The notes under the pieces: model-generated
What the model was told of the DNA's origin: nothing
Databases searched by the model: none
Seen by the model: only the letters and a program-made list of their open reading frames with translations
Part shown: positions 1 to 16,251 of the stretch, piece after piece
How the letters are laid out: every line of letters begins with the position of its first letter
Position numbering within the stretch: the stretch's first letter is position 1
Made by a program: the position numbers and the translations under genes
Assembly (NCBI GenBank): GCA_038247045.1
Contig: JBBRVK010000001.1
Location: 1-42,556 of the forward strand
Reading direction: 5' to 3'
Source: Minisyncoccia bacterium
GTDB lineage: Bacteria > Patescibacteriota > Minisyncoccia > Phycocordibacterales > UBA9973
Length of the DNA stretch: 42,556 bases

Positions 1-207
1 GCTGGAGGTTGTTTCTCTGTTGATTCTGGAACTTCTGCTCAATACGGAACAACTGATTGCTTTACCAGTGGAGGAAATCCAGAGAGTTCATTCCAGAAAA
101 CAACAGTTACATATACATATGGTAGTAATGGTGGAGTTACATACTATGTCTACCGTTCTCCCAACCCACTTGCTCCAGGAAACTCGATAACTTATATCAC
201 TCAATAA
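1..207 (+). CDS. 3' end of an ORF that runs off the window (68 codons, ...NSITYITQ*). Hypothetical Gly/Ser/Thr-rich protein, probably secreted
   Basis: Frame 1 is open from base 1 to TAA at 205-207. The stop lies 1 nt before the ATG of the next gene, which looks like operon coupling. No domain is recognisable in the fragment. Confidence 0.45.
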   Translation, partial: AGGCFSVDSGTSAQYGTTDCFTSGGNPESSFQKTTVTYTYGSNGGVTYYVYRSPNPLAPGNSITYITQ

Positions 208-208
208 T

Positions 209-3200
209 ATGATTAAAAAGAATTTTATCTTCAAAAGAAATATGGTAATGGTCGGCATGCTTATATGTGCCGTTTTCATTTTATCCTATGGGCGAGTAAT
301 GGCCTTAAATGGACCGAGCACAAAACTAAATGGTCTCTACTTAGGTAACACTATTGTTGTCGGAGATACTTCTGCTACTTGGGCAATTGCTGATACAAAT
401 TATTTAAAAGGGGGACACATGCAAGCTGAAAGTCACACTGACTACATGTCTCACTTGGATCATCTTCAACTTCTAACAATTCCTCAAGCTCGTCGTTCTG
501 TCGGCATGCTCGTCACCGTTGCTGATGACAATGATGGAGCTGCAGGAAGTCCTGTTGTTACTTATTTACTTATTACTAATCCTGCGACTGCCTTAACTAC
601 TGATTCTGATTGGACAGTTTTCATGCCTTCACTAGAAAATAATTCTGGTAAATATTTAACGACTGATGGGACGAATGTTATGTGGGGGAATGGAGGGTCA
701 AGTTCTCAATGGACAACAACAGGTTCTGATATTTATTATAATACTGGAAATGTTGGTATCGGAACAACAACTCCTTCTCAAAAACTTGAGGTAGTGGGTA
801 ATGCTCTAGTTAATGGAAATCTTGCTGTTGGTAATTCTGCGGTTTCCGGAAGTTCAACTTGGGTAGATGGAACGATTGTTCCGACTCTTTTAAGTGCATC
901 TCAAACAATCGGAGCAGATGCTGGAGTCAGATATGCAGGTGTTAATAGTTATTTAAGACTTGATAGTACTGCCACTGATTCAAAATATGCAGTGTTAAGT
1001 GTATTAGAAACACCACCAACTAATATAAATAATATAACAGGCGGTATTAGGAGTGGTATGTTTATTTTAAATCATAATGGTAATGGTATATTTTCATCAC
1101 CTATTGGAATACAATCATTAGTATCTCTAAAATCAGGTGGTACTATGACCAATACAAAAGGTGCAGAGCTGGGTATATTGAATACCAATATAGGTACAAT
1201 ATCATCAGCTATTGCTTCTAATAATTCCATCACTAATCAATCAACAGGTATAATAAATTTAGCCATGAGTACTAGTGGTACTATTGTAAATTCTGGTAAT
1301 GGAACTATTACAAATGCTGCTTTAATGAGTACGTATTTGCGTAATGGAACAAATGGTACAGCTACTGGTGCAACAATTAATTATTTATATGGATTATCAT
1401 TAGGAAAAAGTGAGACTTGGTATAATTATGGTACAGTAAATAATTCCTACGGTATATATTTAGACCCGTCAATTGATGTAGGCACCACAAGATATTCTAT
1501 TTATAATGCCTCACTATCTAATTCATATTTTGCTAGTAACATAGGTCTTGGAATAACTTCACCAACTGCATATTTAAATATAAAAGCCGGTACTACCACC
1601 GCAGGAACCGCTCCACTTAAATTAACAAGCGGAGTAAATCTTGGAACAACAGAAGCTGGAGCAGTTGAATATAATGGTACTCATTTATATTTCACCGCCG
1701 CTAATGCTGGAACAAGATATCAACTCGACCAACAGGTGACATACCCATCAGCAGGTATCGCTTTCTCAACAGGTTCTGCATGGGGAACATCCTACACAAC
1801 AAGTGGGACGGGGACCGTTCTTGCTCTTACCTCATCTCCAGTACTTATAACACCCACTCTCGGAGTGGCAACTGCAACTTCAATCAATGGATTAGAACTT
1901 TCTGCTGAGAATACATATTTTAATACAAAGATTGGAATCAACGCAGGATTAAATATTATTCCTGGATCTAGAAATAATACATATGTTGGATTTGAGTCAG
2001 GAAAATCTGGTGCGACGGGAGGAACTTTTGATGCAGAATATAATACAGCGATTGGTTTTAAATCCTTCACATCTAATCTTACTGGATATGAAAATACAGC
2101 ATTGGGGGATTCAACTCTTTACTCAAATACGACAGGAAGTGGTAATACAGCTTCTGGATCTCAAGCACTTTTTAATAATATTTCCGGTAATGGAAACTCG
2201 GCTTCTGGTTATGCAACATTACTTGCCAATACAACAGGAAGTACAAATACTGCTACTGGTTCTTATGCACTATCTGCCAATACAACAGGATCAGATAATA
2301 CTGCAAATGGAAGCAACTCTTTACTTTCTAATACAACCGGTTTAAATAATTCAGCATATGGTGTTCTTTCTCTTTACTCTAATACTACTGGGAATAACAA
2401 TACATCTTTTGGATATCAATCAGGTAGATATATTGCTTCTGGGACTACTCCAAATTCTACTTCAAGTAATTCACTTTATCTAGGTTACGATACTCGAGCT
2501 GCAGCTAATGGTGATACAAATGAAATTGTTATTGGTTATGGAACCGTTGGTAACGGAAATAATACTACAACTCTTGGAACAAATAATGTCCTATTTATAG
2601 GTAATAATACAATTTCAGGTAAGGTTGCACGCTTTATAAATAGTGCAGGGTACTGTGATGTTAATCCAACAACAGCATCTCTTATATGCTCTTCAGATAT
2701 AAATTTAAAGAAAAATATTACCGATTTTAATAATAAAGAATTTACTCTTCAAGAAAATTTTAATACTTCAGATATTTCAATTTTGGAACGTTTAAATTAT
2801 TTAACTCCCGTAAATTATAATTGGAAGAATGAAATAGATGGCACAGATAAACATATTGGTTTTATCGCTCAAGAAATGGAACAAATATTTCCCAATTTAG
2901 TATTTATTGATTTTGCGACAGGTAGTAAATCAATTGCTTATACAAATATGATTCCATATATGGTAAAAGCAATACAAGAAATGGATTTAAAAATAAATGA
3001 AATTAATAATTTAGAAAAAACAAACAATTGGAGAGATAATCTAATTTCATGGTTTGCTAATAGTAAAAATGGTATTTCACATTTATTTGCAAAAACAATC
3101 ATAACCGAAGGAATGGAAATGAAAGATATTGCCACTGGGGATACTTATTGTGTTGTTATTACAAATGGTGAATTTAATAAAGTAAGAGGAAAGTGTGATG

Positions 3201-3499
3201 AAGTATCTTTAAATAAAGCAGTAGAACCTACCCAACCAGAAAAAACACCTGCTGTTGTTGTGCCAGAAATTATAGTCCCAGTAGTAGTAGTACAGGAAGT
3301 CGTTCCAATTATTGAGGCTCCTGTTATTGATAAAAAAATTACTCCGGAAGTAATAGTTGCACCAGTTGCTCCGGTTGATATAAAAGTAGAAAATAAAAAA
3401 GAAATAATAGTTCCCGTTGTTGTTCCTATTGTTGCGCCAGTTACATCTGTTGCTCCTACTGAAACTATAAATATAAATACAGAGGGAAAAGGTTTATAA
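209..3499 (+). CDS. Large secreted tail-fibre-like surface protein with Hep_Hag/YadA-like 14-residue repeats and a peptidase S74 (intramolecular chaperone) domain
   Basis: 1096-aa ORF. N-terminal hydrophobic signal/anchor MVMVGMLICAVFILSYG. NVGIGTTTPSQKLEV motif. NTAxGxxALxxNTTGxx repeats at about 2040-2430. SSDINLKKNI...HIGFIAQEMEQIFPNLV at about 2690-3004. Pro/Val-rich tail. Confidence 0.85.
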   Translation: MIKKNFIFKRNMVMVGMLICAVFILSYGRVMALNGPSTKLNGLYLGNTIVVGDTSATWAIADTNYLKGGHMQAESHTDYMSHLDHLQLLTIPQARRSVGMLVTVADDNDGAAGSPVVTYLLITNPATALTTDSDWTVFMPSLENNSGKYLTTDGTNVMWGNGGSSSQWTTTGSDIYYNTGNVGIGTTTPSQKLEVVGNALVNGNLAVGNSAVSGSSTWVDGTIVPTLLSASQTIGADAGVRYAGVNSYLRLDSTATDSKYAVLSVLETPPTNINNITGGIRSGMFILNHNGNGIFSSPIGIQSLVSLKSGGTMTNTKGAELGILNTNIGTISSAIASNNSITNQSTGIINLAMSTSGTIVNSGNGTITNAALMSTYLRNGTNGTATGATINYLYGLSLGKSETWYNYGTVNNSYGIYLDPSIDVGTTRYSIYNASLSNSYFASNIGLGITSPTAYLNIKAGTTTAGTAPLKLTSGVNLGTTEAGAVEYNGTHLYFTAANAGTRYQLDQQVTYPSAGIAFSTGSAWGTSYTTSGTGTVLALTSSPVLITPTLGVATATSINGLELSAENTYFNTKIGINAGLNIIPGSRNNTYVGFESGKSGATGGTFDAEYNTAIGFKSFTSNLTGYENTALGDSTLYSNTTGSGNTASGSQALFNNISGNGNSASGYATLLANTTGSTNTATGSYALSANTTGSDNTANGSNSLLSNTTGLNNSAYGVLSLYSNTTGNNNTSFGYQSGRYIASGTTPNSTSSNSLYLGYDTRAAANGDTNEIVIGYGTVGNGNNTTTLGTNNVLFIGNNTISGKVARFINSAGYCDVNPTTASLICSSDINLKKNITDFNNKEFTLQENFNTSDISILERLNYLTPVNYNWKNEIDGTDKHIGFIAQEMEQIFPNLVFIDFATGSKSIAYTNMIPYMVKAIQEMDLKINEINNLEKTNNWRDNLISWFANSKNGISHLFAKTIITEGMEMKDIATGDTYCVVITNGEFNKVRGKCDEVSLNKAVEPTQPEKTPAVVVPEIIVPVVVVQEVVPIIEAPVIDKKITPEVIVAPVAPVDIKVENKKEIIVPVVVPIVAPVTSVAPTETININTEGKGL

Positions 3500-3507
3500 A
3501 ATAAATT

Positions 3508-4062
3508 TTAATTATTAAAACCACAAAGAGAAAAGAATTCTTTTTCTGTCTCTTTATCTATTTTATCAGTTACGATAATAATAAGTTCCGTAGATAGATT
3601 TAAATCTTTTTTAATATTTGTGAAAAGATGTTCATACGGATACATTGATATCCAAACAGAATTTTTCAAACAAACAAAACCGGCCTTCTTAAGTAAATAA
3701 CGAAGAGCTTCTCTTTCGTTCTTTCTGTCCTCTGGAATATCAAGTAATATTATCCGCCAGTAATTATCCCAAGAAGTTGAAACTAGACTCGATTCATTTT
3801 CTAGAGTAATATTGTTTAATTTTTGTTTTCCTTGCTGTGTAAGTCTGAAATACTGCTTATTATCAGAGTTAAAGGCCTCTAAAAGCCCATCTGAGAGTAA
3901 ATTTTTGATTGAACGGGAAATAGCATAGTTGGTTTTATTCTCTGTTTTACAATCACCTAAAACAACTTCTCCAACGTCTTTTTGAAGGGAATCTAAGGGT
4001 AAAACTCTCTTTTTTGAAAGAGTTTTAAGTATAGCTCTTTGAATTGAAGGCTTTTTTGCCAT
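3508..4062 (-). CDS. PaaX-like transcriptional regulator: N-terminal winged helix plus C-terminal Cas2/PaaX_C-type ferredoxin-fold domain
   Basis: 184-aa ORF. The C-terminal WRIILLDIPEDRKNEREALRYLLKKAGFVCLKNSVWIS pattern is typical of PaaX_C/Cas2-fold domains. The N-terminal part looks like a wHTH. It is divergent from dnaK. Confidence 0.6.
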   Translation of the reverse strand: MAKKPSIQRAILKTLSKKRVLPLDSLQKDVGEVVLGDCKTENKTNYAISRSIKNLLSDGLLEAFNSDNKQYFRLTQQGKQKLNNITLENESSLVSTSWDNYWRIILLDIPEDRKNEREALRYLLKKAGFVCLKNSVWISMYPYEHLFTNIKKDLNLSTELIIIVTDKIDKETEKEFFSLCGFNN

Positions 4063-4214: not shown

Positions 4215-6107
4215 ATGAGTAAAATTATAGGTATAGATTTAGGTACAACAAATAGTGCGGTTGCTATAATAGAAGGAGGACAACCAAAAATTATCGAAAA
4301 TATTGAAGGAGCTCGAACGACTCCCTCTGTTGTTACGATGACAAAAAATGGAGACCGAATGGTTGGTCTTCTTGCTAAACGTCAAGCAGTAACAAATCCT
4401 GAGAATACTATTTATGGTATTAAAAGATTTATTGGTCATTTGTATGAAGATCCTGAAATTCAGAAAGATGAGAAAACTATTCCTTATAAAATTCAGAAAG
4501 GTTCAACTGGTGGTGTTGAAACAAAAATGGGTGATGCTTGGCTTCGCCCCGAAGAAATTTCAGCAATGATTCTAAGTAAGATTAAAGCTGATGTCGAAGC
4601 AAAACTCGGAGAAAAAATAACAGAAGCAGTCATCACCGTTCCTGCTTATTTTAATGATGCCCAACGTAAGGCAACAAAAGATGCTGGTGTAATTGCTGGA
4701 CTTGATGTTAAGCGTATCATTAATGAGCCGACAGCTGCCGCACTTGCTTATGGTTTCAATACAAAGAAAAATGAAAAAATAGTTGTTTACGACTTTGGTG
4801 GAGGAACATTTGATGTTTCTGTTCTTGAAGTTGGAGATGATGTTATTGAAGTTAAATCAACAGATGGAGATTCACATATGGGTGGAGAAGATATTGACCA
4901 GAAGGTTGTCCGTTGGATTGCAGATGAATATAAAAAGGAATCAGGTATCGATGTCACAAATGATATGTTGGCACTTCAGCGTCTAAAAGAAGCAGCTGAG
5001 AAGACAAAACATGAGCTTTCCACAACTATGGAATCAGAAATAAATATTCCATTTATCACTTCTGATGCTTCAGGTCCAAAACATTTACTACTAAAGATGT
5101 CGAGAGCTGTTCTTGAATCACTTTCAGAAGAATATGTAACTCGTTCTATTGAAATTACTAAACGTGCGCTTGAAGCTTCTCCATTTAAAATGGAAGAAAT
5201 TAATGAAATAATTTTGGTTGGTGGTCAGACAAGAATGCCAGCTATTGTAGATGCTGTTAGAAAATTATTTAATAAAGAGCCAAATCGTTCTATTAACCCA
5301 GATGAGGTTGTAGCTCTTGGAGCTGCGGTTCAAGCGGGTGTTCTCCAGGGAGATGTTCGTGATGTTCTCTTGCTTGATGTTATACCTCTATCACTTGGTA
5401 TTGAAACATTAGGTGGAGTTGCGACAAAATTAGTTGAACGAAATACAACAATTCCTAGTTCAAAATCACAAATATTTTCAACTGCGGCTGATAATCAGAC
5501 AAGTGTAGAAATACATATAACTCAAGGTGAGCGTCCAATGGCCACAGATAATAAATCTCTTGGAAGATTCATCTTAGATGGTATTCCACCATCACCACGT
5601 GGTATTCCTCAAGTTGAGGTAACTTTTGATGTTGATGCAAATGGAATATTAAATGTGAAAGCAAAAGATAAAGCTTCAGGCAAGGAACAATCGATTCGTA
5701 TTGAAGCAAGTTCTGGACTTTCCGAAGCTGATATTAAAAAAATGAGAGATGAAGCTGAAATTCATCGTGATGAAGATGCTAAAAAGAAAGAATTAGCTGA
5801 TGAAAAAAATACAGCTGAAATGATGATATTTACTGCTGAAAAATCAATCAAAGATTATGGAGATAAAGTAACACCTGAAATAAAGACTGAAATTGAAGTT
5901 AAAATCGCTGAAGTTAAAAAAGCTAAAGAAGGTAATGACATGGAAGCTCTTAAGAAAACTACAATGGAACTTTCAAATGAAATGTCAAAAATTGGTGAAG
6001 CAATGAGTAAGGCACAACCTGAACCTCAAGCTGAAAATAAAACACCAGAAGAACAAGAACCAGAAATTAAGGATGCTGAGGTAAAAGAGAATCCAGAAAA
6101 AAATTAA
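4215..6107 (+). CDS. dnaK: Chaperone DnaK (Hsp70)
   Basis: 630 aa. [18 protein letters not shown] and [11 protein letters not shown] signatures, with an acidic C-terminal tail. Confidence 0.97.
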
Positions 6108-6118
6108 CGTCACTTCAT

Positions 6119-6212
6119 AGAAGATACTATTTTTGAGGTCTTCGGTTCGCTCGTGCAATATCGTATTTCAGATAATAACGAGCTCAACCAGACCATAAAA
6201 ATAGTATCTTCT
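6119..6212 (+). repeat. Intercistronic long hairpin, family member 1 (dnaK-dnaJ gap), with a nested insertion hairpin
   Basis: Arms AGAAGATACTATTTTT (6119-6134) and AAAAATAGTATCTTCT (6197-6212) are perfectly complementary. Core GAGGTCTTCGGTTC (6135-6148) and CCAGACC (6188-6194). Inner GCTCG/CGAGC stem at 6149-6153 and 6179-6183. Confidence 0.65.
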
Positions 6213-6227
6213 ATTGTTACGTTTATG

Positions 6228-6233
6228 TATAAT
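6228..6233 (+). promoter_or_regulatory. -10 hexamer TATAAT 7 nt upstream of the dnaJ ATG (leaderless configuration)
   Basis: tatgTATAATaaaaaatATG, with the ATG at 6241. Confidence 0.45.
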
Positions 6234-6240
6234 AAAAAAT

Positions 6241-7323
6241 ATGCCAAAAGACTATTACAAAACATTAGGAATAGAAAAAAATGCTTCTAAGGAAGAAATA
6301 AAAAAAGCTTTTCATAAACAAGCTCATAAATTTCACCCAGATAAAAATAATGGCGATGATTCAAAGTTTAAAGAAGCTAATGAAGCCTATCAAGTCTTAT
6401 CAGATGATAAGAAGCGTTCTTCTTATGATCAATTCGGCAATGCAGACGGTCCTCAGGGTTTTGGAGGAGGGCAAGGTGGTCCATTTGGTGGCTTTGATTT
6501 TAATGGTGGAAATGGTGGAGTTGAATTTGATATGGGGGATTTAGGAGATATTTTTGGAGATTTTTTTGGGGGCGGTATGGGGCGTGGTAGAAATAAAGTA
6601 AAAAGAGGTAGAGATATTTCAACTGAAATAAATATATCTTTTGAAGAATCAATTTTTGGAATTGAACATACTGTCAAAGTAAACAAACAATCTAATTGTA
6701 ATACTTGTGGTGGCACAGGAAGTAAACCAGGAACTAAAATGAATACTTGTAGTGTGTGTAATGGACAAGGACAAGTTCGTGAAATAAAGCGTTCTATTTT
6801 AGGTAATTTTTCAACAATAAAAACTTGTGATAATTGTGGCGGCACTGGTAAAATTCCTTCAGATAAATGTAGTGACTGTAGAGGTGCTGGGGTAAAAAAA
6901 CAAGATGAAGAAATTACAGTAAAAATCCCCGCCGGAATTAATGATGGTGAATCTCTTCGTGTTAATGGTAGAGGTGAAGCAATTAATGGAGGAGAATCAG
7001 GTGATTTATATATTAAATTAAATGTTAAAAAACACCCAATTTATTCTCGTGATGGAACTAATTTATTAATGGATTTAAAGATTAAATTAACTGAAGCATT
7101 GCTTGGGGTGACATATAATCTTAAGACATTAGATAATCATAATATCGAAGTGAAAATACCTGAAGGTATAAACAACGGAGAGATGTTAAGGGTTCGAGGT
7201 AAAGGGGTGCCTTCCGTTCATGGACGTGGTGATATTATAATTCGGATTCAGATAGATATGCCAAATAAATTATCTCGCAAAACTAGGGAAGTTATAGAGA
7301 TGTTAAAAGAAGAAGGTTTGTAA
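6241..7323 (+). CDS. dnaJ: Co-chaperone DnaJ, type I: J domain, G/F region and four CxxCxGxG zinc-finger repeats
   Basis: I place the start at the ATG at 6241 ([10 protein letters not shown]), not at the track's 6214. HPDKN motif, GGFGG-rich linker, and the [24 protein letters not shown] and CSDCRGAG repeats. Confidence 0.95.
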
Positions 7324-7477
7324 AAATTAGGAGTTAATCTTATAAATAACCAGATACGGGATTTAAGCCCTATCTAGGATCTACCTTATTTTTCTTTACA
7401 AATTTTCATATTTTGTTATGATGTGTCATGTTATTATTATTATTTATTACGGGTAGACAAATGCCTGGTATAAAGAA

Positions 7478-8863
7478 ATGACTAAACGTTCAATCGCATC
7501 CAAAAAACTTTGGAAGCTTGGTATTAATGATTTTAATACTCAATACTTTGATTTTAACAAAGAAGGAGATTTAATAATCAAAGAGGGTCACAATATCTAT
7601 AATGTTAAATATTTAGCTGAAAAATTTGGAACATCATTAGAGATATTGATGCCTTTTGTGATAGAAGAAAGACTAGAAGATTTTTTAGATCTTGCTGCTT
7701 CACTTTCAAAAAAAGTTGGGTATAAGGGTAAATTCTTTTATCATTATCCAATGAAAGTGAACCAAAGTAGAGATATTGTTATGTCTATTGTTGGAGAAGG
7801 GGCTCATCTTGAGACTTCTTCTTATAATGAACTATGGCTAGTCAAAAAAATGCTTGAGCAGGAAACTTTCGATCCGAATATTCGAATTCTTTGTTCTGGT
7901 CCAAAAACTGATAAATATATAAATCTGATTGATGATCTTCAGCATAAGGGAGTTAAGATTTTTCCTTTAATTGAGGGACCAAAAGAATTAAGATTTCTTC
8001 AGTATTCAAAATATGATGTAGGGATAAGACTTGATATGCCAATAAAGGCAAATTCATATTGGAATAAGCCAATTGATCGTTTTGGTTTTTCCGCAAAAGA
8101 AATACTTGAAATGGGAACTTTTAAAAATCTAAAAATATTACATTATCATGTAGGCTCACAAATTGAAAAACTATCTGATGTTTTAGTTCCAATAAAATAT
8201 GCTCTTGATGTATATTTTAAATTGAAAGAAAAAAATCCATCTTTAGATACATTAGATATTGGGGGTGGTATGCCAATTCCTTACACTCGCACTAAGGGTT
8301 ATTCCGTAAATAAAATTTTGGAAAAAATTCTTGAACTTGTAAAAAAGGAATCAGAAAAAAGGGAACTTCCTCATCCAAATTTAATTTGTGAATGGGGACG
8401 TTATATTGTTGCCCCAGCTCAAATTACCGTTTTTAAAGTAATTGATACAAAAACTATTTTAAATAAAAAAAGTCCGGCTAAAAAATGGTATGTAGTTGAT
8501 GGTAGTTTCATGAATGATCTTCTTGATACTTGGGCTATCGGACAAAAATGGGCAATTTCACCAGTAAATACCAAAAGAGATGATGATCTAAAAGAGGTAT
8601 GGCTAGCAGGTTCTTCTTGTGATTCTGATGATATATATACTGGGGTTGATGGAACTGTAACCCTACCTAATTTTGATGCCAGTGATGACAGTGAAGGACC
8701 AATGTATATTGTTGTATATGATACTGGAGCTTACCAAGACTCATTATCAGCTAAACACTGTATGTTATCTGCTCCAATGAAGGTTATAGCTGAGAATGGA
8801 CATCTTGTTGTTGCAAGACCTCATGAATCACCTGAAGATATTGGAAAAACTTTTGGATGGTAA
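7478..8863 (+). CDS. speA: Compact SpeA-type PLP-dependent arginine decarboxylase (Orn/DAP/Arg decarboxylase fold)
   Basis: 461 aa. YPMKVNQ, LHYHVGSQ, DIGGGMPIPY and EWGRY resemble the SpeA motifs YPIKVNQ, HFHLGSQ, DxGGGLGVDY and ESGRA. Confidence 0.75.
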   Translation: MTKRSIASKKLWKLGINDFNTQYFDFNKEGDLIIKEGHNIYNVKYLAEKFGTSLEILMPFVIEERLEDFLDLAASLSKKVGYKGKFFYHYPMKVNQSRDIVMSIVGEGAHLETSSYNELWLVKKMLEQETFDPNIRILCSGPKTDKYINLIDDLQHKGVKIFPLIEGPKELRFLQYSKYDVGIRLDMPIKANSYWNKPIDRFGFSAKEILEMGTFKNLKILHYHVGSQIEKLSDVLVPIKYALDVYFKLKEKNPSLDTLDIGGGMPIPYTRTKGYSVNKILEKILELVKKESEKRELPHPNLICEWGRYIVAPAQITVFKVIDTKTILNKKSPAKKWYVVDGSFMNDLLDTWAIGQKWAISPVNTKRDDDLKEVWLAGSSCDSDDIYTGVDGTVTLPNFDASDDSEGPMYIVVYDTGAYQDSLSAKHCMLSAPMKVIAENGHLVVARPHESPEDIGKTFGW

Positions 8864-8885
8864 AAAAAGTTAAAAATTAATAAAC

Positions 8886-8918
8886 AAAAATTACCAAAGC
8901 GAAGCCTTGGTAATTTTT
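8886..8918. terminator. Bidirectional intrinsic terminator between the convergent speA-like gene and asd
   Basis: AAAAATTACCAAAGC-gaa-GCCTTGGTAATTTTT, with an A-tract on one side and a T-tract on the other. Confidence 0.7.
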
Positions 8919-8933
8919 GTTTTAAATTCCTAG

Positions 8934-10025
8934 TTATTTTATATATCCCTTGCTGACCAATAATTCTGCGTTTAATATTCCTCCACCAGCAGCTCCACGG
9001 ACAGTATTGTGACTAAGGGAAATAAACTTGTAATCAAAAATATTACAATCTCTAAGTCTTCCAACCGTCACTGCCATACCTTTATCATTATCTCTATCTT
9101 TTCTAGGTTGAGGACGATTTTCTTCCTCGGTATAAATTATAGGACAAATAGGAGCAGAGGGGAGTTTTAATTCTTGAGGAGCAGATTTAAATTCACGCCA
9201 AATTTTTATAATATCTTCTTTGTTTGGTTTTTTATCTTTGAATAAAATATTTACACAGGCTGTATGTCCATCTATTACTGGAACTCTAGTGCAAGTTGCT
9301 GATATAGCAATATCTTTGTTTGTGATAAATTTATTATTTTTAATATTGCCTAATATTTTTAGAGGTTCATTTTCAGTTTTTTCTTCTTCACCTCCAATAT
9401 AAGGAATAATATTATCAATCATATCAAGACTTGGTACCCCAGGATATCCAGCACCAGAGACAGCTTGAAGGGTTGTAATGATTATTTTTTTGACAGGGAA
9501 TCCAGCTTTTTGCAAGGCATAAATTGGAGTTAAATAACTTTGAAGACTACAGTTTGGTTTAACAACAATAAAACCTTTATTCCAAGAATGTTTTTTCATT
9601 TGTGATGGTAATATTTCTAAATGATCGCTATTTATCTCAGGAACAAGCATTGGAACATCGTCTATTTGTCTATTGGCGGAAGCGTTTGAGACAACAGGGA
9701 AGCCTGCGGCGGCATATTTTTCTTCCATCTCTTTTACTAATTTTTTATCAGGTAATTCAAAGGCTGAAAAAACAAAATCGCATTTATTTTTAATTTTATC
9801 TATATCTGCGACATCCTCCATAATAATTTTTTTAACAGAGTGTGGTATTGGGGTTGCCATTTGCCAGCGATTTTTAACTGATTCTTCATAAGTCACTCCT
9901 GCAGAATTAGCTGAAGCTGCAAGATAAACAACAGAAAACCATGGATGATTTTCTAAAAGACGAATATAATTCTGACCCACCATACCTGTTGCACCTAGAA
10001 TTCCAACTTTAAATTTTTTTGCCAT
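8934..10025 (-). CDS. asd: Aspartate-semialdehyde dehydrogenase
   Basis: 363 aa. GATGMVGQ Rossmann N-terminus, active-site KPNCSLQ, and TCTRVPVIDGH. Confidence 0.9.
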   Translation of the reverse strand: MAKKFKVGILGATGMVGQNYIRLLENHPWFSVVYLAASANSAGVTYEESVKNRWQMATPIPHSVKKIIMEDVADIDKIKNKCDFVFSAFELPDKKLVKEMEEKYAAAGFPVVSNASANRQIDDVPMLVPEINSDHLEILPSQMKKHSWNKGFIVVKPNCSLQSYLTPIYALQKAGFPVKKIIITTLQAVSGAGYPGVPSLDMIDNIIPYIGGEEEKTENEPLKILGNIKNNKFITNKDIAISATCTRVPVIDGHTACVNILFKDKKPNKEDIIKIWREFKSAPQELKLPSAPICPIIYTEEENRPQPRKDRDNDKGMAVTVGRLRDCNIFDYKFISLSHNTVRGAAGGGILNAELLVSKGYIK

Positions 10026-10040
10026 TGTATTTCTTCAGAA

Positions 10041-10106
10041 TTAAAATATTGTTTTCTTTATAGTCTGGTGAGTTGAACCGAGGACTTAAAGAAAATAATA
10101 TTTTAA
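10041..10106 (-). repeat. Intercistronic long hairpin, family member 2 (lysC-asd gap). This is the minimal copy
   Basis: The minus strand reads TTAAAATATTATTTTCTTTA-AGTCCTCGGTTCAACTCACCAGACTA-TAAAGAAAACAATATTTTAA. The arms pair over about 24 bp with one mismatch and one bulge. Confidence 0.65.
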
Positions 10107-10112
10107 TGTAGT

Positions 10113-11450
10113 TTATTTAATAAATTTTTTATAAATAGCTTTAACGACCTTGTTTATATTATCAGTTCTAATAACTGCCTCCATCCGATAACAATTTTCA
10201 TAATAGAATGCACTTATCAATAAATCTGTTTTAAGTTTAACTAATAAGTCATTAAAATTACTAACATCTTTGGCATGAAACCATCCAACTAGAAATACCA
10301 TACTTGCATTGACCATTTCTATTTTATTTACTTTGCCTTTCAATTCCTCATACACTTTATCTAACTGACCATTACTATTATTAGCTACTAATTGTAAGCT
10401 ATACCTGGTATTACTAATTAATGTTATTTCAACTTTATATTTAATAAAAATCTCGCTTACCATTAAAAGTAAATCATTTACTTTAATATTTTCATCAGTA
10501 ATTAACAATAAACTTAGATCTTTTTTTAAACTTACAATTTTAGCTCCTTTTTCTTGTTTTTTTATTAAACCTACCTTTGTATTTTTTTTAGGGTCTGAAA
10601 TAGAGGCTATTTCTATTGGTGTTTTAAACATTTTCACATATTGAATAGCTTTATCATGAATGATTTTTCCTGATTCTTCGGCTTCTAAATAGCTAATTAT
10701 TGGAATCGTTTCTGCCTCGGGTACTATTTTAGGATCAGCGGATAAAACACCACCAACATCTTTCCATAAAATAATTTTTTCAGCTTTTAGAGCTGTTCCA
10801 ACAAAGCAAGCTGTTGTGTCTGTACCACCTCTACCAAGAGTCGTTATTTCACCTGTGATAGTTTTACCTGTAAAGCCTGAGATAACTACAACATCATCTA
10901 TTTTAGATAATTTTTTATTAATATTAACTTCAGAAACTTGATATACAATATTAGCATTCTTAAAATTATTATCTGTAATAATAGGTATTTCTTCCGCTAG
11001 GATTTTTTGAGCTTGAATTCCTGAGGCATTTAAATAATGAGTAAGTATTATTGCTGAGAGTTTTTCTCCATAAGCGACAACTTTATCTTCAAGATCATTA
11101 GAAATATTTTTTTTATTATTTAAATCTTTTTCTAGATTTTCCAAATTCTTTAATAATTCTAATTTTGTTTTTTTTTGCAAATCAATATCTAAAATAAGGT
11201 CGTTTATTATTTGCTCATGCTTGCTGAATATATCTGATATAAATGTTTTAATTATCTCAGCGCTATAATTTTCTTTTAAATTATTTAAGAACAGGAGTAT
11301 ATAATCTGTCATTTTTGGCATTGCCGAAACAACAGCAATAGATTGATAACCTCTGGTTGTTTGCTCTTTGATTCTTTTTTTAATAACAGGAATAAGGTCT
11401 TTTGTTAAAATTCCACCTCCAAATTTATTAACAATGATTTTTTTATGCAT
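10113..11450 (-). CDS. lysC: Aspartate kinase
   Basis: 445 aa. NKFGGG N-terminus, the GRGGTDTTA motif of the amino-acid kinase family, and a C-terminal ACT-like region. Confidence 0.85.
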   Translation of the reverse strand: MHKKIIVNKFGGGILTKDLIPVIKKRIKEQTTRGYQSIAVVSAMPKMTDYILLFLNNLKENYSAEIIKTFISDIFSKHEQIINDLILDIDLQKKTKLELLKNLENLEKDLNNKKNISNDLEDKVVAYGEKLSAIILTHYLNASGIQAQKILAEEIPIITDNNFKNANIVYQVSEVNINKKLSKIDDVVVISGFTGKTITGEITTLGRGGTDTTACFVGTALKAEKIILWKDVGGVLSADPKIVPEAETIPIISYLEAEESGKIIHDKAIQYVKMFKTPIEIASISDPKKNTKVGLIKKQEKGAKIVSLKKDLSLLLITDENIKVNDLLLMVSEIFIKYKVEITLISNTRYSLQLVANNSNGQLDKVYEELKGKVNKIEMVNASMVFLVGWFHAKDVSNFNDLLVKLKTDLLISAFYYENCYRMEAVIRTDNINKVVKAIYKKFIK

Positions 11451-11490
11451 ATATAATTTGAGCAGCCCTCTGTTAATAATAGACCTTAGA

Positions 11491-11518
11491 ATTATATAAT
11501 ATTATGTGTAAAAATCAA
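11491..11518 (-). promoter_or_regulatory. Candidate promoter of lysC
   Basis: On the minus strand: TTGATT (11513-11518), 16-nt spacer, TATAAT (11491-11496). Confidence 0.4.
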
Positions 11519-11540
11519 ATATTATAAGGATTTTGTATGA

Positions 11541-11569
11541 TTGACTTGTTAATGGTCTGATAGTAAAAT
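11541..11569 (+). promoter_or_regulatory. Candidate promoter of the carboxyspermidine dehydrogenase operon
   Basis: TTGACT (11541-11546), 17-nt spacer, TAAAAT (11564-11569). The leader to the ATG at 11650 is about 75 nt. Confidence 0.5.
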
Positions 11570-11649
11570 ATATCACATATTAACGTAGAATTATTAATTA
11601 TTTCAGTATTGCATTTGCTATTAAATGTGACCTGAATTAGTAAAATCAT

Positions 11650-12900
11650 ATGGCAAAAATACTTGTAATAGGTTGTGGTAACGTTGGTAGTGTTGGTTTG
11701 CATAAGATGGCTCAATTCCCAACTGTTTTTTCTGAAATTCACCTTGTTTCTCGTACGCTTTCAAAATGTGAGGTAGTTAGAGATGCTATAAATAAAAAAA
11801 CAAAGGGTAATGTAAATTTGATTGTTCACCAGGGGAACGTGGGGCAAACAGATGTTTTTTTGAATTTATTAAAAGAGGTAAAACCAGAACTTGTTGTAAA
11901 TTGGGGTAGTCCATATGACAATCTCGTCGTCATGGATGCTTGTTTAGAATATGGTGTGAATTATATAGATACAGCTTGTTATGAAAACCCAGAAAAATAT
12001 GGATTCTCTTATAAATTACAATTAGCTAAAAATGAAGCATTCAAAAAGAAAGGATTACTCGCAATCTTAGGTATTGGTTTTGACCCAGGAGTTTCCAATA
12101 TTTATTCAGCTTATGCTCGTGATTATTTATTTGATAAAATAAAGACTATTGATATTCTTGACTGTAATGGTGGTTCAAAAGATAAAAAGATAAAGTTTGC
12201 TCCTAATTTTGATCCAGAAATAAACTTACGTGAACTTATTCTACCTATTAAATTCTGGAGGAATGGCAAGTGGCAAGAACGTGGCCGTCTAATAGATGAA
12301 GATGCTCCTTACTTTGAATTTAATTTTCCTGAAGCTGGTAAATTTACTCCATATTTAATGTATCACGAAGAAATGGAAACAATTCCAACCCATATTCCGG
12401 GATTGAAGCGTATTCGTTTTTGGATGACGTTCTCGAAAAATTATCTTACATATTTAAGAGTGCTTTATGAGATTGGGTTAACACGTATTGACCCAATAGA
12501 TTACAATGGAACCCCCGTTGTGCCTGTTAAGTTCTTGAAAAAAATATTACCAACTGGAGATGATTTTAATAAGAGCTATAAAGGTAAAACCAACATCGGA
12601 AATATTATATCTGGGACAAAAGATGGGAAAAATAAATTCGTTTATATTTATAATGTCTGTGACCATGAAGGTGCTTTTAAAGAAACTGGGGGAAACGCTA
12701 TAGGTTATACTACTTCTATTCCTACAGTTACATGTGCTAAGTTAGTTCTTGAAGGTAAATGGTTTGGATGTGGAGTTAAAAATACTGAAGATAAAAGTCT
12801 TGATTCAAAAATCTTTATTGAAGAGATGAAGAAGGTAGGTCTTTCAACAATAATAAAGAAGATAAAAGATTTACCAGCTGCTCTTAAAAATGATTATTAA
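11650..12900 (+). CDS. Saccharopine-dehydrogenase-family carboxy(nor)spermidine dehydrogenase/synthase
   Basis: 416 aa. ILVIGCGNVGS Rossmann N-terminus. The length and layout are typical of CANSDH/CASDH, and the gene sits immediately upstream of the cognate decarboxylase. Confidence 0.75.
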   Translation: MAKILVIGCGNVGSVGLHKMAQFPTVFSEIHLVSRTLSKCEVVRDAINKKTKGNVNLIVHQGNVGQTDVFLNLLKEVKPELVVNWGSPYDNLVVMDACLEYGVNYIDTACYENPEKYGFSYKLQLAKNEAFKKKGLLAILGIGFDPGVSNIYSAYARDYLFDKIKTIDILDCNGGSKDKKIKFAPNFDPEINLRELILPIKFWRNGKWQERGRLIDEDAPYFEFNFPEAGKFTPYLMYHEEMETIPTHIPGLKRIRFWMTFSKNYLTYLRVLYEIGLTRIDPIDYNGTPVVPVKFLKKILPTGDDFNKSYKGKTNIGNIISGTKDGKNKFVYIYNVCDHEGAFKETGGNAIGYTTSIPTVTCAKLVLEGKWFGCGVKNTEDKSLDSKIFIEEMKKVGLSTIIKKIKDLPAALKNDY

Positions 12901-12913
12901 ATAAAAATATTAT

Positions 12914-12939
12914 GTCAGATTATTGAATAATAATCTGAC
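12914..12939 (+). other. Intercistronic stem-loop between the dehydrogenase and decarboxylase genes
   Basis: GTCAGATTATT-gaat-AATAATCTGAC. Perfect 11-bp stem, no U-tract. Confidence 0.5.
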
Positions 12940-12951
12940 TCAATTAAAAAT

Positions 12952-14136
12952 ATGAAAAATTTATTTATAGAGCCATGGATTGATACAGAAGGCTGGAATC
13001 TTTTAGATGTGGAAAATGTAAAAACTCCATGTTATATTGTTAGCGAAAAAAGACTAGAGAAAAATCTAAAAATTTTAAAGGAAGTAGAAGATAAAACTAG
13101 GGTTAAAATATTAATGGCTCTTAAAAGTTTTTCTATGTTTTCAACTTTTCCATTAATGAAGAAATATCTAATAGGAAGTGAAGCTAGTTCTGTGAATGAA
13201 GCAAGACTAGGCTATGAGAAATTTGGAGGTGAAGTTCATGTTTTCTCTCCTTCTTATACAAAAGAAAATATTAAAGAATATATTAAATATTCTGATCATT
13301 TGGTTTTTAATTCATTTTCTCAGTGGAATAATTTTAAAAATATTTTAAAAAAATCAAAGAAAAAAATATCTGCTGGAATTAGGGTAAACTTGGAGCATAG
13401 TGAAGTTGAAACTTCTATGTACGATCCAAGTAGTCAGAATTCACATTTTGGAGTGACTAAATCAAATTTTGAAATAGAAAATTTAGAAGGTTTGGAGGGA
13501 CTTCACTTTCATAATTTATGTGAACTCAATGCCGATGCACTGATGCGATCACTTGTTGTTTTTGAAGAAAAATTTGGTGAATTTTTGTCTAAAATGAAGT
13601 GGGTAAATTTTGGGGGAGGTCACCATATTACTAGATCTGATTATGATTTAAATTTATTATCAGAGATAATTTTAAAATTTAAGAAAAGGCATCCTCATCT
13701 AGAAGTTTATCTTGAACCAGGTGAAGCTGTAGCCCTCAATGCTGGGGTTTTAGTTGCTGAAGTAGTAGATATCTTCCATAATGGTATTGATATAGCAGTT
13801 CTTGATGTTTCTGCGACAACGCACATGCCTGATGTTCTTGAAATGCCATATTTACCGACTATTTTAGGAGCGAGTCCTAAATCGGAGAATGGTAACAATT
13901 ATCGTCTGGTTGGACCAAGCTGTCTTACTGGAGATGTTATTGGTGAGTATTCATTTGGTAAATCCTTAAAAATTGGAGAAAAAATTGTATTTCTCAATAT
14001 GGCTATTTATACAATGGTAAAGAATAATACTTTTAATGGAGTTAATTTGCCTTCTGTTTTAATTTGGACAAAAGATAATAAGATAAAGATTATTAAAAAA
14101 TTTGGATATAAAGATTTTAAAGAGAGATTATCATAA
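12952..14136 (+). CDS. nspC: Carboxy(nor)spermidine decarboxylase (PLP-dependent, NspC family)
   Basis: 394 aa. N-terminal TPCYIVSEKRLEKNL, NFGGGHH and EPGEAV motifs of the NspC-type alanine-racemase-fold decarboxylases. Confidence 0.75.
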   Translation: MKNLFIEPWIDTEGWNLLDVENVKTPCYIVSEKRLEKNLKILKEVEDKTRVKILMALKSFSMFSTFPLMKKYLIGSEASSVNEARLGYEKFGGEVHVFSPSYTKENIKEYIKYSDHLVFNSFSQWNNFKNILKKSKKKISAGIRVNLEHSEVETSMYDPSSQNSHFGVTKSNFEIENLEGLEGLHFHNLCELNADALMRSLVVFEEKFGEFLSKMKWVNFGGGHHITRSDYDLNLLSEIILKFKKRHPHLEVYLEPGEAVALNAGVLVAEVVDIFHNGIDIAVLDVSATTHMPDVLEMPYLPTILGASPKSENGNNYRLVGPSCLTGDVIGEYSFGKSLKIGEKIVFLNMAIYTMVKNNTFNGVNLPSVLIWTKDNKIKIIKKFGYKDFKERLS

Positions 14137-14157
14137 TGTAGATAAAAAGCTGCACAA

Positions 14158-14226
14158 ATTATATTATAAAAAAGTCCTCAGACGAGGGAAATAAAAAACA
14201 GAGCCAGACATTTTTTATAATATAAT
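14158..14226 (+). repeat. Intercistronic long hairpin, family member 3 (decarboxylase-ureohydrolase gap)
   Basis: ATTATATTATAAAAAAGTC (14158-14176) pairs with GACATTTTTTATAATATAAT (14207-14226), with one bulged A. Core AAGTCCTCAG at 14172-14181 and CCAGAC at 14204-14209. Confidence 0.6.
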
Positions 14227-14256
14227 ATAATTTGTTACGTTTTTAATAAAAAATAT

Positions 14257-15294
14257 ATGAATAAAATATTAGAAGAAATAATATCAAAATTTAATCCAGA
14301 TGAAAATGGGTTACATCATCATGGTATTTTTGGTCTGCCTTTTAAATCAGAAGAATCAAAAATGGTTTTACTTCCAATTCCATGGGAAGCCACTGTCTCT
14401 TACAAAGGTGGAACATCTTTAGGTCCAAAAGAGATACTTGATGCTTCTCAGCAAATAGATTTATATGATGCAATTTATCCAAATGGATGGAAAGAGGGTA
14501 TTGCAATGGAAGATATTTCATCTAGTACTTTTTATGAAAATAAACAGGTTAGAGAAAAAGTTTTAAAATATTTAGATGGATACGGAGAAGGTAATATTGA
14601 TATTGATTTGCAAAATGATATTAATAAAGATTGTTTGGATCTAAAAAATTACGTTAAAGAAGAAACTAAAAAATTAATCGAGAAAGGTAAAATCGTTGGA
14701 ATTGTAGGAGGAGACCATAGTGTCCCTCTTGGTTATATGGAGTCTTTGTCTACTTATTATAGTGATTACGGAATTTTACATATTGATGCTCATGCCGATC
14801 TTCGTGATGCTTATGAAGGACTTGAGTATTCACATGCTTCAATTTTTTATAATGCCTTAAAAATTAAAAATATATCAAAATTAGTTCAAGTTGGAATTAG
14901 GGATATAAGTGAAGGGGAGCAGAATCTAATTAAAAAAGAAAAAGGTAGAATCTCCATGTTTAAAGATTATGATATCCGTAAAGATTTATTTAATGGTGTG
15001 ACTTGGGCTAAAAAATGCGATGAGATAGTCAAAAAATTACCTAAAAATGTTTACATCTCATTTGATATTGATGGTTTAGTTCCATATCTATCACCAAATA
15101 CTGGAACTCCTGTTCTTGGTGGTTTTACACTCGACGAGATTACTTTCTTAATAGAAAAAATTGTAATATCAGGCAGAAAAATTATTGGTTTTGATCTTTG
15201 TGAAGTTGCTCCAGGTGTTGGTGATCAATGGGATGGGAATGTTGGAGCAAGGGTTTTATATAAACTTTGTTTATTGACTCTAAGATCACAATAA
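14257..15294 (+). CDS. speB: Ureohydrolase of the arginase/agmatinase family (agmatinase or aminopropylagmatine ureohydrolase)
   Basis: 345 aa. GGDHSV, DAHADL and SFDIDGL metal-binding motifs. Confidence 0.75.
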   Translation: MNKILEEIISKFNPDENGLHHHGIFGLPFKSEESKMVLLPIPWEATVSYKGGTSLGPKEILDASQQIDLYDAIYPNGWKEGIAMEDISSSTFYENKQVREKVLKYLDGYGEGNIDIDLQNDINKDCLDLKNYVKEETKKLIEKGKIVGIVGGDHSVPLGYMESLSTYYSDYGILHIDAHADLRDAYEGLEYSHASIFYNALKIKNISKLVQVGIRDISEGEQNLIKKEKGRISMFKDYDIRKDLFNGVTWAKKCDEIVKKLPKNVYISFDIDGLVPYLSPNTGTPVLGGFTLDEITFLIEKIVISGRKIIGFDLCEVAPGVGDQWDGNVGARVLYKLCLLTLRSQ

Positions 15295-15315
15295 TTTATA
15301 TTTAAATTGCTTATA

Positions 15316-15324
15316 TGATACAAT
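15316..15324 (+). promoter_or_regulatory. Extended -10 (TGaTACAAT) 9 nt upstream of the transporter ATG
   Basis: tatgaTACAATaaccattatATG. Confidence 0.4.
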
Positions 15325-15333
15325 AACCATTAT

Positions 15334-16251
15334 ATGCAATGGCTTTTGTTAACACTAGGGGCAACATTCTTATGGTCTGTTGTAAATATATCTGATCAAT
15401 TTTTAGTTAGAAAATATGGGAATGGAAGATTTGCCTCTGGCTCTCTTGCTATTTTTTCTAGTTTAATAGGAATTTTTGTTGCAATTTTTATTTTCATTTT
15501 TATTACAAAAAATGTTTTAGATATATCCTTAAATGATAAGTTTTTATTAATAATATCTGGAATTTTTAATATTGGATGGATACTCTTGTATTTATTTGCT
15601 ATAGAAATAGAAAATGTTTCAGGTATTGCTCCTTGGTTTATGGTTGTACCAATATTTGGTTATATTATGGGGTATGTTTTTTTCAAAGAGACTTTTCCAC
15701 TTTTACAAATGGCAGGTTCTGTAATAATTTTAGCAGGTGTCGCAATACTTTCCTTTGATTTTACAGATAAAGAAAATTATCGTTTTAAATGGAAGGTAGC
15801 AATTTATATGATTTTTGCTTGCTTAATGATAGCTATTATGGGTATTATCTTTAAATATGTAACGGTTGCAAATAACTATTGGGTATCTTCTTTTTGGGTT
15901 TATATTGGGCTAGGGATTTCTGGTGTATTTATTTACAGTTTTATCCCGAACTATCGTCGAGATTTTTGGACAATGATTAGAAGGGGTGGAATAAAGATTT
16001 TTTCCATAAATTTAGGGAGTGAAATTATTTCAATAATTGGTAATTTTTTATCAAATTACGCAATTCTCCTTGCTCCATTTTTTTTAGTATATTTATTTGA
16101 AAGTTTACAGCCAGCGATATTGTTGATTTTAACGCTTATATGTACTTATTTTTTTCCTAATATTATTAAAGAAGATATATCTAAAAGAGTTCTTGTTCCA
16201 AAAATTATCTCAATAGTATTAGTTATAATAGGAAGCATGATAGCTTTTTAG
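15334..16251 (+). CDS. EamA/DMT-superfamily 10-TM transporter
   Basis: 305 aa, about ten hydrophobic helices in two halves, ending in a TAG stop. The substrate is unknown. Confidence 0.7.
   Translation: MQWLLLTLGATFLWSVVNISDQFLVRKYGNGRFASGSLAIFSSLIGIFVAIFIFIFITKNVLDISLNDKFLLIISGIFNIGWILLYLFAIEIENVSGIAPWFMVVPIFGYIMGYVFFKETFPLLQMAGSVIILAGVAILSFDFTDKENYRFKWKVAIYMIFACLMIAIMGIIFKYVTVANNYWVSSFWVYIGLGISGVFIYSFIPNYRRDFWTMIRRGGIKIFSINLGSEIISIIGNFLSNYAILLAPFFLVYLFESLQPAILLILTLICTYFFPNIIKEDISKRVLVPKIISIVLVIIGSMIAF

Follow-up and report, generated by a model that had tools for sequence, protein, structure and literature searches.

A chromosomal fibre gene with a phage-type self-cleaving chaperone domain and a candidate role in attachment in a Minisyncoccia bacterium

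Why should a bacterium with a small genome keep, among its housekeeping genes, a gene built like a phage tail fibre? The question is raised by a 1096-aa open reading frame (ORF) near the start of contig JBBRVK010000001.1 of a Minisyncoccia bacterium (GenBank assembly GCA_038247045.1). The window analysed here is this entire contig (C1; 42,556 nucleotides), one of 109 that make up an 815-kb, 85%-complete genome (G000), and the best-named homologs of the encoded protein belong to Candidatus Nomurabacteria and Paceibacterota. An earlier note on the window had described the ORF, whose limits we confirm, as a secreted fibre with a phage-type S74 domain, no phage context and a possible part in host attachment. 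We consider it reasonably probable that the gene belongs to the chromosome, is inherited vertically and encodes a Sec-exported fibre with the build of a phage receptor-binding protein, which is retained at the cell surface and binds a ligand. The structural and processing part of this model we hold with considerable confidence, and its role as an adhesin, argued by analogy, we regard as an even prospect.

By its sequence the fibre carries a genuine S74 self-cleaving chaperone domain, which would be expected to cleave as its homologs do. The match to PF13884 (aa 829-898) is significant, with an E-value of 2.5e-13 and 50.5 bits against a cut-off of 22, and the genome scan gives it 55.1 bits. Across the 18 sequences of an alignment (A1), Ser829, Asp830, Leu833 and Lys834 are invariant; they belong to the stretch S829-D830-I-N-L-K834, an instance of the SDxxxK motif, with the codons of Ser829 and Lys834 at nt 2693-2695 and 2708-2710. 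The motif aligns with SSDRRIKK of 6F45 and SASDERLKR of 8JOV, which upholds the Ser...Lys context that the earlier note had read from the letters. The profile built from A1 also reaches solved S74 chaperones, namely phage S16 gp37 (6F45, E 2.5e-10), the tail fibre 8JOV (2.8e-7) and human MYRF (7DC3, 2e-4).

An AlphaFold2 monomer model of aa 780-1010, with a predicted local distance difference test score (pLDDT) of 75.8, matched, at E<=1e-3, 41 viral S74, tail-fibre, gp37 and neck-appendage models in BFVD; the TM-scores reach only 0.25-0.44. Foldseek comparison of this C-terminal monomer model with the PDB yielded nothing significant, presumably a consequence of the intertwined, trimeric nature of S74 domains; the BFVD entries, which are monomer predictions, did match. 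Homology with phage S74 proteins and with the mosaic adhesive trimeric (MAT) fibres of Bdellovibrio suggests that the fibre trimerises and cuts itself.

The genes around the fibre bear on whether it belongs to a phage. Downstream lie housekeeping genes, as previously reported: a PaaX-like regulator, DnaK, DnaJ, arginine decarboxylase, Asd and aspartate kinase, among others. The contig begins close to the fibre gene, and its upstream context was read by synteny. In at least seven genomes of the same genus (G056, G055, G068, G020, G015, G008 and G022) the same slot is found, in the order rpsM...rpsI-grpE-fibre-PaaX-like-dnaK-dnaJ; in all seven the S74 fibre is convergent to the PaaX-like ortholog on the opposite strand, with dnaK and dnaJ following. 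Where a contig reaches further upstream, the genes are rpsM-rpsK-rpsD-rpoA-rplQ-rplM-rpsI and then GrpE (Pfam E 1.7e-33). An independent 122-kb metagenome contig shows the same order with Pfam labels, the fibre that it encodes (P0010) being 45% identical over aa 445-1091. In the window's own genome rplM-rpsI-grpE lie on contig C34, which breaks off 55 codons into a gene of the slot-fibre N-terminus type (...HWPKIFSIFLFILLLSSYLNLFSFFSPGTELDPTCPP). Because the synteny extends over these genus genomes, the metagenome contig and contig C34, the region upstream of the window reads as a ribosomal-protein and grpE region and not as a prophage tail module, and contigs C34 and C1 would join there. Outside the genus slot, a Nomurabacteria relative (P0013) sits between TatD and rpsF-ssb-rpsR.

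The same surroundings weigh on the idea that the gene is a prophage or tailocin relic, a stranded tail-fibre gene without present cellular function. The S74 domain is phage-type, and so are the matches of PHROG virion structural and tail spike families to aa 465-934. Against a relic, the ORF is intact and bears a signal peptide, which virion fibres do not have; the slot is kept across at least seven genus genomes; neither the 42 kb that follow nor the syntenic region upstream holds any phage genes; and 50,697 phage records contain neither the post-S74 module nor most of the shaft. We regard a relic as extremely improbable.

The fibre gene is not alone in its slot. The window opens inside another ORF, separated from the fibre by the single nucleotide reported before (TAA 205-207, T 208, ATG 209). 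Its 68-aa remnant aligns with the extreme C-termini of P0295, P0242, P0244 and P0269 in a C...DCF...YxxYRS pattern. These four proteins share the N-terminal domain of the fibre, lack S74 and end in a '...YYVYRS...TYTIQ' domain, and the upstream ORF is by this alignment the tip of a second, non-S74 fibre-type protein. The locus therefore appears to hold two fibre genes in tandem, the first without and the second with S74, most likely in the order grpE, fibre A (non-S74, from its N-terminus on C34 to its C-terminus at window 1-207), fibre B (209-3499), PaaX-like regulator and dnaK.

A comparable arrangement may occur in the slot of G015 (L024, G015:C28), where a 968-aa ORF with a slot-type signal peptide (5196-8099) is followed, with a 13-nt overlap and in another frame, by a 2587-aa ORF (8087-15847). 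The two ORFs are either a tandem pair like that of the window or a single gene of ~3550 aa that a frameshift or sequencing error has split.

The features of the fibre and its immediate neighbours are collected in Table 1.

Table 1. Coordinates of the fibre gene, its protein modules and the adjoining genes in the window
Feature	Position	Strand	Basis or remark
Upstream gene, C-terminal 68 aa, cut by contig start	1..207	+	Stop 205-207; ends ...TYYVYRSPNPLAPGNSITYITQ and stop
Fibre gene	209..3499	+	1096-aa ORF, stop codon 3497-3499
Signal peptide, aa 1-32, predicted cleavage between VMA and LNG	209..304	+	Sequence features, hydropathy; junction also in homologs
N-terminal domain, aa 33-165 (...AIADTNYLKGGHMQ...RRSVGMLVTV...VTYLL...DWTVF.P)	305..703	+	Rare module, always directly behind signal peptide
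Collar motif 1, NVGIGTTTPSQKLEV, aa 181-195	749..793	+	Sequence
Variable Gly/Ser/Thr/Asn-rich beta region, aa 196-443	794..1537	+	Few homologs, no family match
Collar motif 2 (NIGLGITSPTAYLNI), then conserved module ...KAGTTTAGTAPLKLTSG..EAGAVEYNGTHLYFT..RYQLDQQ..STGSAWGTSYTTSG..., aa 444-560	1538..1888	+	
17-residue repeat array, ~7-8 copies, aa 605-740	2021..2428	+	Lag-17 identity
Pre-cleavage stalk/tip, aa 741-828, ends ...VARFINSAGYCDVNPTTASLIC before the scissile S	2429..2692	+	18-sequence alignment A1
Peptidase_S74 intramolecular chaperone domain, aa 829-935	2693..3013	+	Pfam, alignment, PDB profile, BFVD, phage matches
Post-S74 module, aa 936-1000: helix, then small two-Cys beta unit (...EGMEMKDIATGDTYCVVITNGEFNKVRGKCDE)	3014..3208	+	Kept in slot orthologs
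Pro/Val/Ile/Glu-rich low-complexity tail, aa 1001-1096	3209..3496	+	Composition V26 I15 P13 E10 %
PaaX-like regulator	3508..4062	-	PF20803, E 9.8e-20; convergent with fibre, 8-nt gap; marks conserved slot
dnaK and dnaJ	4215..7323	+	Downstream border of slot

Secretion of the protein is predicted from sequence heuristics. Its N-terminus, MIKKNFIFKRN-MVMVGMLICAVFILSYG-RVMA followed by LNGPS, combines a basic n-region, a 17-residue hydrophobic core with its hydropathy peak at aa 12-15, and a V-x-A site; the junction ahead of LNGPS is common to the fibre and its homologs, and the same heuristics find signal peptides in all complete slot orthologs, in keeping with the signal peptide proposed at the outset. 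The public gene call (P0001, 1083 aa) begins at Met14 (window 248) and so is without the basic n-region. We prefer the ATG at 209, one base past the upstream stop, because a canonical charged n-region and signal peptide result from it; no obvious Shine-Dalgarno sequence precedes either start.

Behind the N-terminal domain, the tail-fibre-domain motif recognised earlier is present as NVGIGTTTPSQKLEV, and a second copy of this 'NVGIGTTxPxxKLxV' motif, NIGLGITSPTAYLNI, occupies aa 444-458. This collar is the most widely shared piece of the fibre, found in 2062 proteins at E<=1e-3. The conserved module after the second collar also includes ...TAPLKLTSG..EAGAVEYNGTHLYFT.., and paralog copies of aa 444-560 coincide with assembly breaks. 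Further along, the stalk closes with ...GYCDVNPTTASLIC. Five separate segments were scanned with Pfam at E<=10, and neither the N-terminal domain nor the middle region, repeats or tail could be assigned to a family; a scan against NCBIfam gave nothing meaningful, and phmmer of the whole fibre against PDB sequences gave no match at E<=1.

The repeat array was also found, in a form other than that first proposed. Self-identity at lag 17 is 0.45 (z = 11.8 against 2000 shuffles), and at lag 14 it is 0.06, below random. The consensus is xNTTGxxNTAxGxxSLx, and the motif written in the earlier note, NTAxGxxALxxNTTGxx, itself counts 17 letters; of the claim of about eight 14-residue repeats the array stands, with ~7-8 copies, and the period does not. 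The likeness to YadA-head or Hep_Hag repeats also falls away, as the repeat segment has no Pfam match, Hep_Hag (PF05658) included, even at E<=10. Tandem Repeats Finder did not detect the 17-residue array in the DNA; the repeat is kept at the protein level only.

Put together, these modules suggest a course of events. The signal peptide would be removed on export. The C-terminal S74 domain would then bring three chains into register and seed the folding of the 17-residue-repeat shaft, starting at the C-terminal end. The Ser829/Lys834 dyad would next cut before Ser829, releasing a fragment of 268 residues, made up of S74, the two-Cys module and the Pro/Val-rich tail, and leaving a mature fibre of ~796 residues per chain, in which the end of aa 741-828 would form the new C-terminus and exposed tip. 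Finally, the N-terminal domain would keep the mature fibre on or near the cell surface, where it would bind a ligand carried by another cell or surface, most plausibly a host cell in the case of a Paceibacteria-type organism. Small genome and lineage suggest that the organism is episymbiotic, and it is this lifestyle, together with the analogy to Bdellovibrio MAT fibres, that points to surface retention and adhesion.

The slot itself is stable and its content is not. The genes that flank it are 60-92% identical among the genomes compared, and the fibres, of 953 to ~2600 aa, align only in part (32-56%). Against G056, for instance, DnaK is 92% and the PaaX-like regulator 80% identical, and the fibre aligns well only over aa 794-1087 (47%), other stretches being at 35%. 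The proteins that carry the N-terminal domain show how modules are exchanged: P0241, P0246, P0247, P0255 and P0260 end in S74 and a similar tail, while the four relatives of the upstream ORF named above do not. N-terminal and C-terminal modules thus recombine between fibre proteins, and the fibre gene reads as a fast-evolving mosaic in a fixed slot.

Whole-protein searches returned more than 2800 proteins, most of them by way of the repeats and S74, and none of the top 120 covers aa 1-125; a whole-fibre search for related loci among genome contigs found no relative. When aa 28-175 were searched against 1.84 billion proteins, ~13 representative clusters matched the N-terminal domain over its full length, nearly always right behind a signal peptide, and an alignment of this domain family (A2) has 28 invariant columns. 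A profile of this domain found no relative in the PDB, and its AlphaFold2 model, made from an 11-sequence alignment, has a pLDDT of 45.7, too low for use. Importin, considered as a relative of the domain, was set aside as noise, its matches lying at E 0.2.

Of 41 relatives, 18 have S74 ORFs, and up to four matches fall in one genome of ~0.8 Mb; a fibre match occurs in 30 of the 61 genomes of the genus, G000 included; both counts are lower bounds, as fibre genes break assemblies. Beyond the window, G000 holds fibre fragments at the end of C3 (532 aa, with S74) and at the end of C39 (271 aa, with an N-terminal hydrophobic segment), and its paralogs have three different N-termini.

The C39 fragment (G000:C39:6580-7392, + strand), which has the third type of N-terminus, is a fibre-like N-terminal piece with a lengthy leader of cytoplasmic appearance and one hydrophobic segment (IAYTILFTIVIFSIVSIVSA), followed by repeats of the motifs '...GTG..LTG..KGNGTSA...' and '...GQVLISNGTTVAPSW...'. 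Fibre genes are repeatedly found at contig ends (G000 C1:1, C34:1, C3:36914 and C39:7394; G009 C7, C8 and C22; G045 C39; G068 C15). Copy numbers of S74 fibres in metagenome-assembled genomes are therefore underestimated, because shared modules (e.g. ...TSG.NLGTTEAGAVEY.G.HLYFT...) evidently break short-read assemblies.

Such diversity would also be expected of an envelope coat or protective fibre, a variable surface layer, shield or decoy against phages or predators that diversifies under their pressure and not for host recognition. A hypervariable gene at a fixed locus, with several mosaic paralogs per genome, is what any surface molecule under antagonistic selection should look like. The fibre nevertheless has no homology to S-layer or coat proteins, about half of the searched genus genomes are without a match, and the characterised cellular homologs are adhesins (PMC10769870). 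We judge a coat or shield to be decidedly unlikely.

Those homologs are the MAT fibres of Bdellovibrio bacteriovorus, and their S74 subgroup, for example Bd3182, is the closest characterised system. B. bacteriovorus has 21 of these signal-peptide-bearing, phage-like trimeric fibres, displayed at its surface (Caulton et al. 2024, Nat Microbiol, PMC10769870). According to the same study, 13 end in an S74 domain with SDxxxK, described as catalytic, and 8 do not; Bd3182 self-cleaves at the serine of this motif, one MAT fibre binds prey glycans, and tips have been swapped in evolution. The present fibre is likewise chromosomal, signal-peptide-bearing and phage-fibre-like, the MAT host being a bacterium that lives on other bacteria, as this organism may do. 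It has the S74 domain with SDxxxK, though ~160 extra residues trail S74 here, and it belongs to a family of S74 and non-S74 members with swapped modules, the upstream tandem gene being of the non-S74 kind.

The likeness may extend to recurrent motifs of the collar or capping-loop type: VGIGTTTPSQKL may be set against the MAT consensus V-G-G/N-pi-x-x-P-x-x-x-L, from which VGIGTTTPSQKL and IGLGITSPTAYL depart by one additional residue before the Pro and by I or L at position 3. Proteins of Bdellovibrio sp. and Halobacteriovorax are direct sequence matches for the collar, which occurs 5-7 times in each, and for S74. Unlike MAT fibres, in which a ~130-aa beta-rich post-signal domain is common to all members of a genome, the fibre has a post-signal domain not found among its G000 paralogs. 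This domain is unrelated to that of MAT fibres at profile level (hhalign probability 0.4% for A2 against A3, the latter comprising 5 post-signal domains from Bdellovibrio sp., Halobacteriovorax and Bacteroidota, none from strain HD100). Its owner is also a Paceibacteria-type bacterium belonging to the candidate phyla radiation (CPR) and not a diderm predator. By analogy the fibre would work like an S74 MAT fibre; we do not file it as a MAT member because the MAT N-terminal domain is undetectable in it and its own N-terminal domain is sporadic.

Phage S74 receptor-binding proteins (K1F endosialidase, T5 pb1, S16/T4-like gp37 6F45 and the GA-1-type neck appendage) have the same domain family and Ser/Lys motif, placed on the C-terminal side of a repeat-built shaft. 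Unlike them, the fibre is encoded in a core chromosomal locus with a Sec signal peptide. Among the 50,697 phage records only the S74 core matches, in 126 records, all at less than 60% identity, and the shaft has one short match.

Many phage S74 proteins are depolymerases, such as endosialidase. The fibre might accordingly be a secreted tailspike-like protein that binds or cuts extracellular polysaccharide, be it the capsule or wall of a host or the cell's own matrix, and not a holdfast. Records named 'endo n acetylneuraminidase' and 'hyaluronidase' are among its phage matches, and aa 196-443 are beta-rich and without assigned function. Those matches, however, are confined to the S74 core, none of the segments has a glycosidase, lyase or pectate-lyase-type family even at E<=10, and the neighbours are chaperone and ribosomal genes, not genes of glycan metabolism. 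A glycan-active enzyme thus appears unlikely.

Trimeric autotransporter adhesins, the name that some sources give to homologs of the fibre, offer a further comparison: they too are secreted and have Asn/Thr/Gly-rich short tandem repeats. The fibre differs from YadA/Hep_Hag adhesins in the period and family of its repeats, as set out above. At E<=1 the whole protein matches no Pfam family other than Peptidase_S74, and no YadA-type membrane anchor was found. Relatives are already listed by NCBI as 'tail fiber domain-containing protein', and we found no paper linking S74 or tail-fibre proteins with CPR bacteria or Paceibacteria.

Several observations weigh against a surface-held adhesin and have to be set beside the evidence for it. 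No LPXTG motif, C-terminal transmembrane helix or known wall-binding domain was found in the fibre that could anchor it. The N-terminal domain occurs in four of the 61 genus genomes, one copy in each, a sporadic distribution and not the common base of MAT fibres. The best-conserved part of the protein is its C-terminal half, including the tip that cleavage would expose, and the N-proximal and middle parts vary, which is not a simple pattern of constant base and variable tip. About half of the searched genus genomes have no fibre match, so the fibre is not essential to the lineage, with the reservation that fragmented assemblies undercount. Finally, as far as the sources at hand describe them, the attachment structures with experimental support in cultivated Patescibacteria (Saccharibacteria) are type IV pili.

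We take the fibre to be a real and fairly ordinary member of a large family that, judging from its characterised relatives, may serve attachment to other cells. To our knowledge, apart from the type IV pili of cultivated Saccharibacteria, little is understood of the means by which ultrasmall CPR bacteria or Patescibacteria recognise their hosts and keep hold of them. Chromosomal, secreted, self-processing fibres assembled from swappable phage-type modules are plausible determinants of specificity, if the prey-recognition fibres of Bdellovibrio are taken as the analogy. What the locus adds is a fixed, phage-free grpE-fibre-PaaX-like-dnaK slot whose content diverges far faster than its flanks, a putative tandem pair of non-S74 and S74 fibres, a post-S74 module not seen in phages and a repeat period corrected to 17.

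This post-S74 module is modelled as a helix and three strands (pLDDT 66-85), and no match to the post-S74 part was found in the 50,697 phage records, nor any Pfam match to the C-terminal 164 aa at E<=10. Wherever SDxxxK can be recognised in a slot ortholog, 227-267 residues lie beyond the scissile Ser; they include the two-Cys unit and a low-complexity tail whose composition varies, being acidic or Pro/Thr-rich in the orthologs, unlike that of the fibre. Across 100 retrieved homologs with SDxxxK, the median span between the scissile Ser and the C-terminus is 190 residues, and the commonest ranges are 100-149 and 200-299 residues (35 proteins each). Every slot ortholog keeps the architecture of two-Cys module and variable tail, which phage S74 proteins lack, and the 268-residue fragment could itself be functional. 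It might be a second product, or a retention device that tethers the unfolded pro-fibre in the envelope until three chains have assembled, with cleavage as release or activation; the placement of the gene between grpE and the PaaX-like and dnaK genes might in turn couple fibre production to the chaperone or stress regulon. We offer this as a doubtful conjecture.

Five apparently stand-alone small ORFs matching only the post-S74 region, in G009, G045 and G068, were considered as independent genes and rejected, being contig-end truncations of fibre genes. The fibre has two pairs of cysteines, Cys816/Cys827 just ahead of the cleavage site (2654-2692) and Cys980/Cys995 in the post-S74 unit (3146-3193), which may form disulfides in the exported protein. 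In A1 both members of the first pair are present in 12 of the 18 sequences, and the second pair is present wherever the aligned fragment reaches that module.

The PaaX-like regulator deserves mention in its own right. In this genus, the usual order grpE-dnaK-dnaJ is interrupted by a fibre gene and a convergent PaaX-like (PaaX_M/Cas2-like) regulator, as also in L021 (11951-19500) and L027 (9266-17258). There are several PaaX-like paralogs per genome, with five matches in G000, and some copies in other genus genomes have in-frame stops; the regulator might be a substitute for HrcA or belong to an expanded regulator family.

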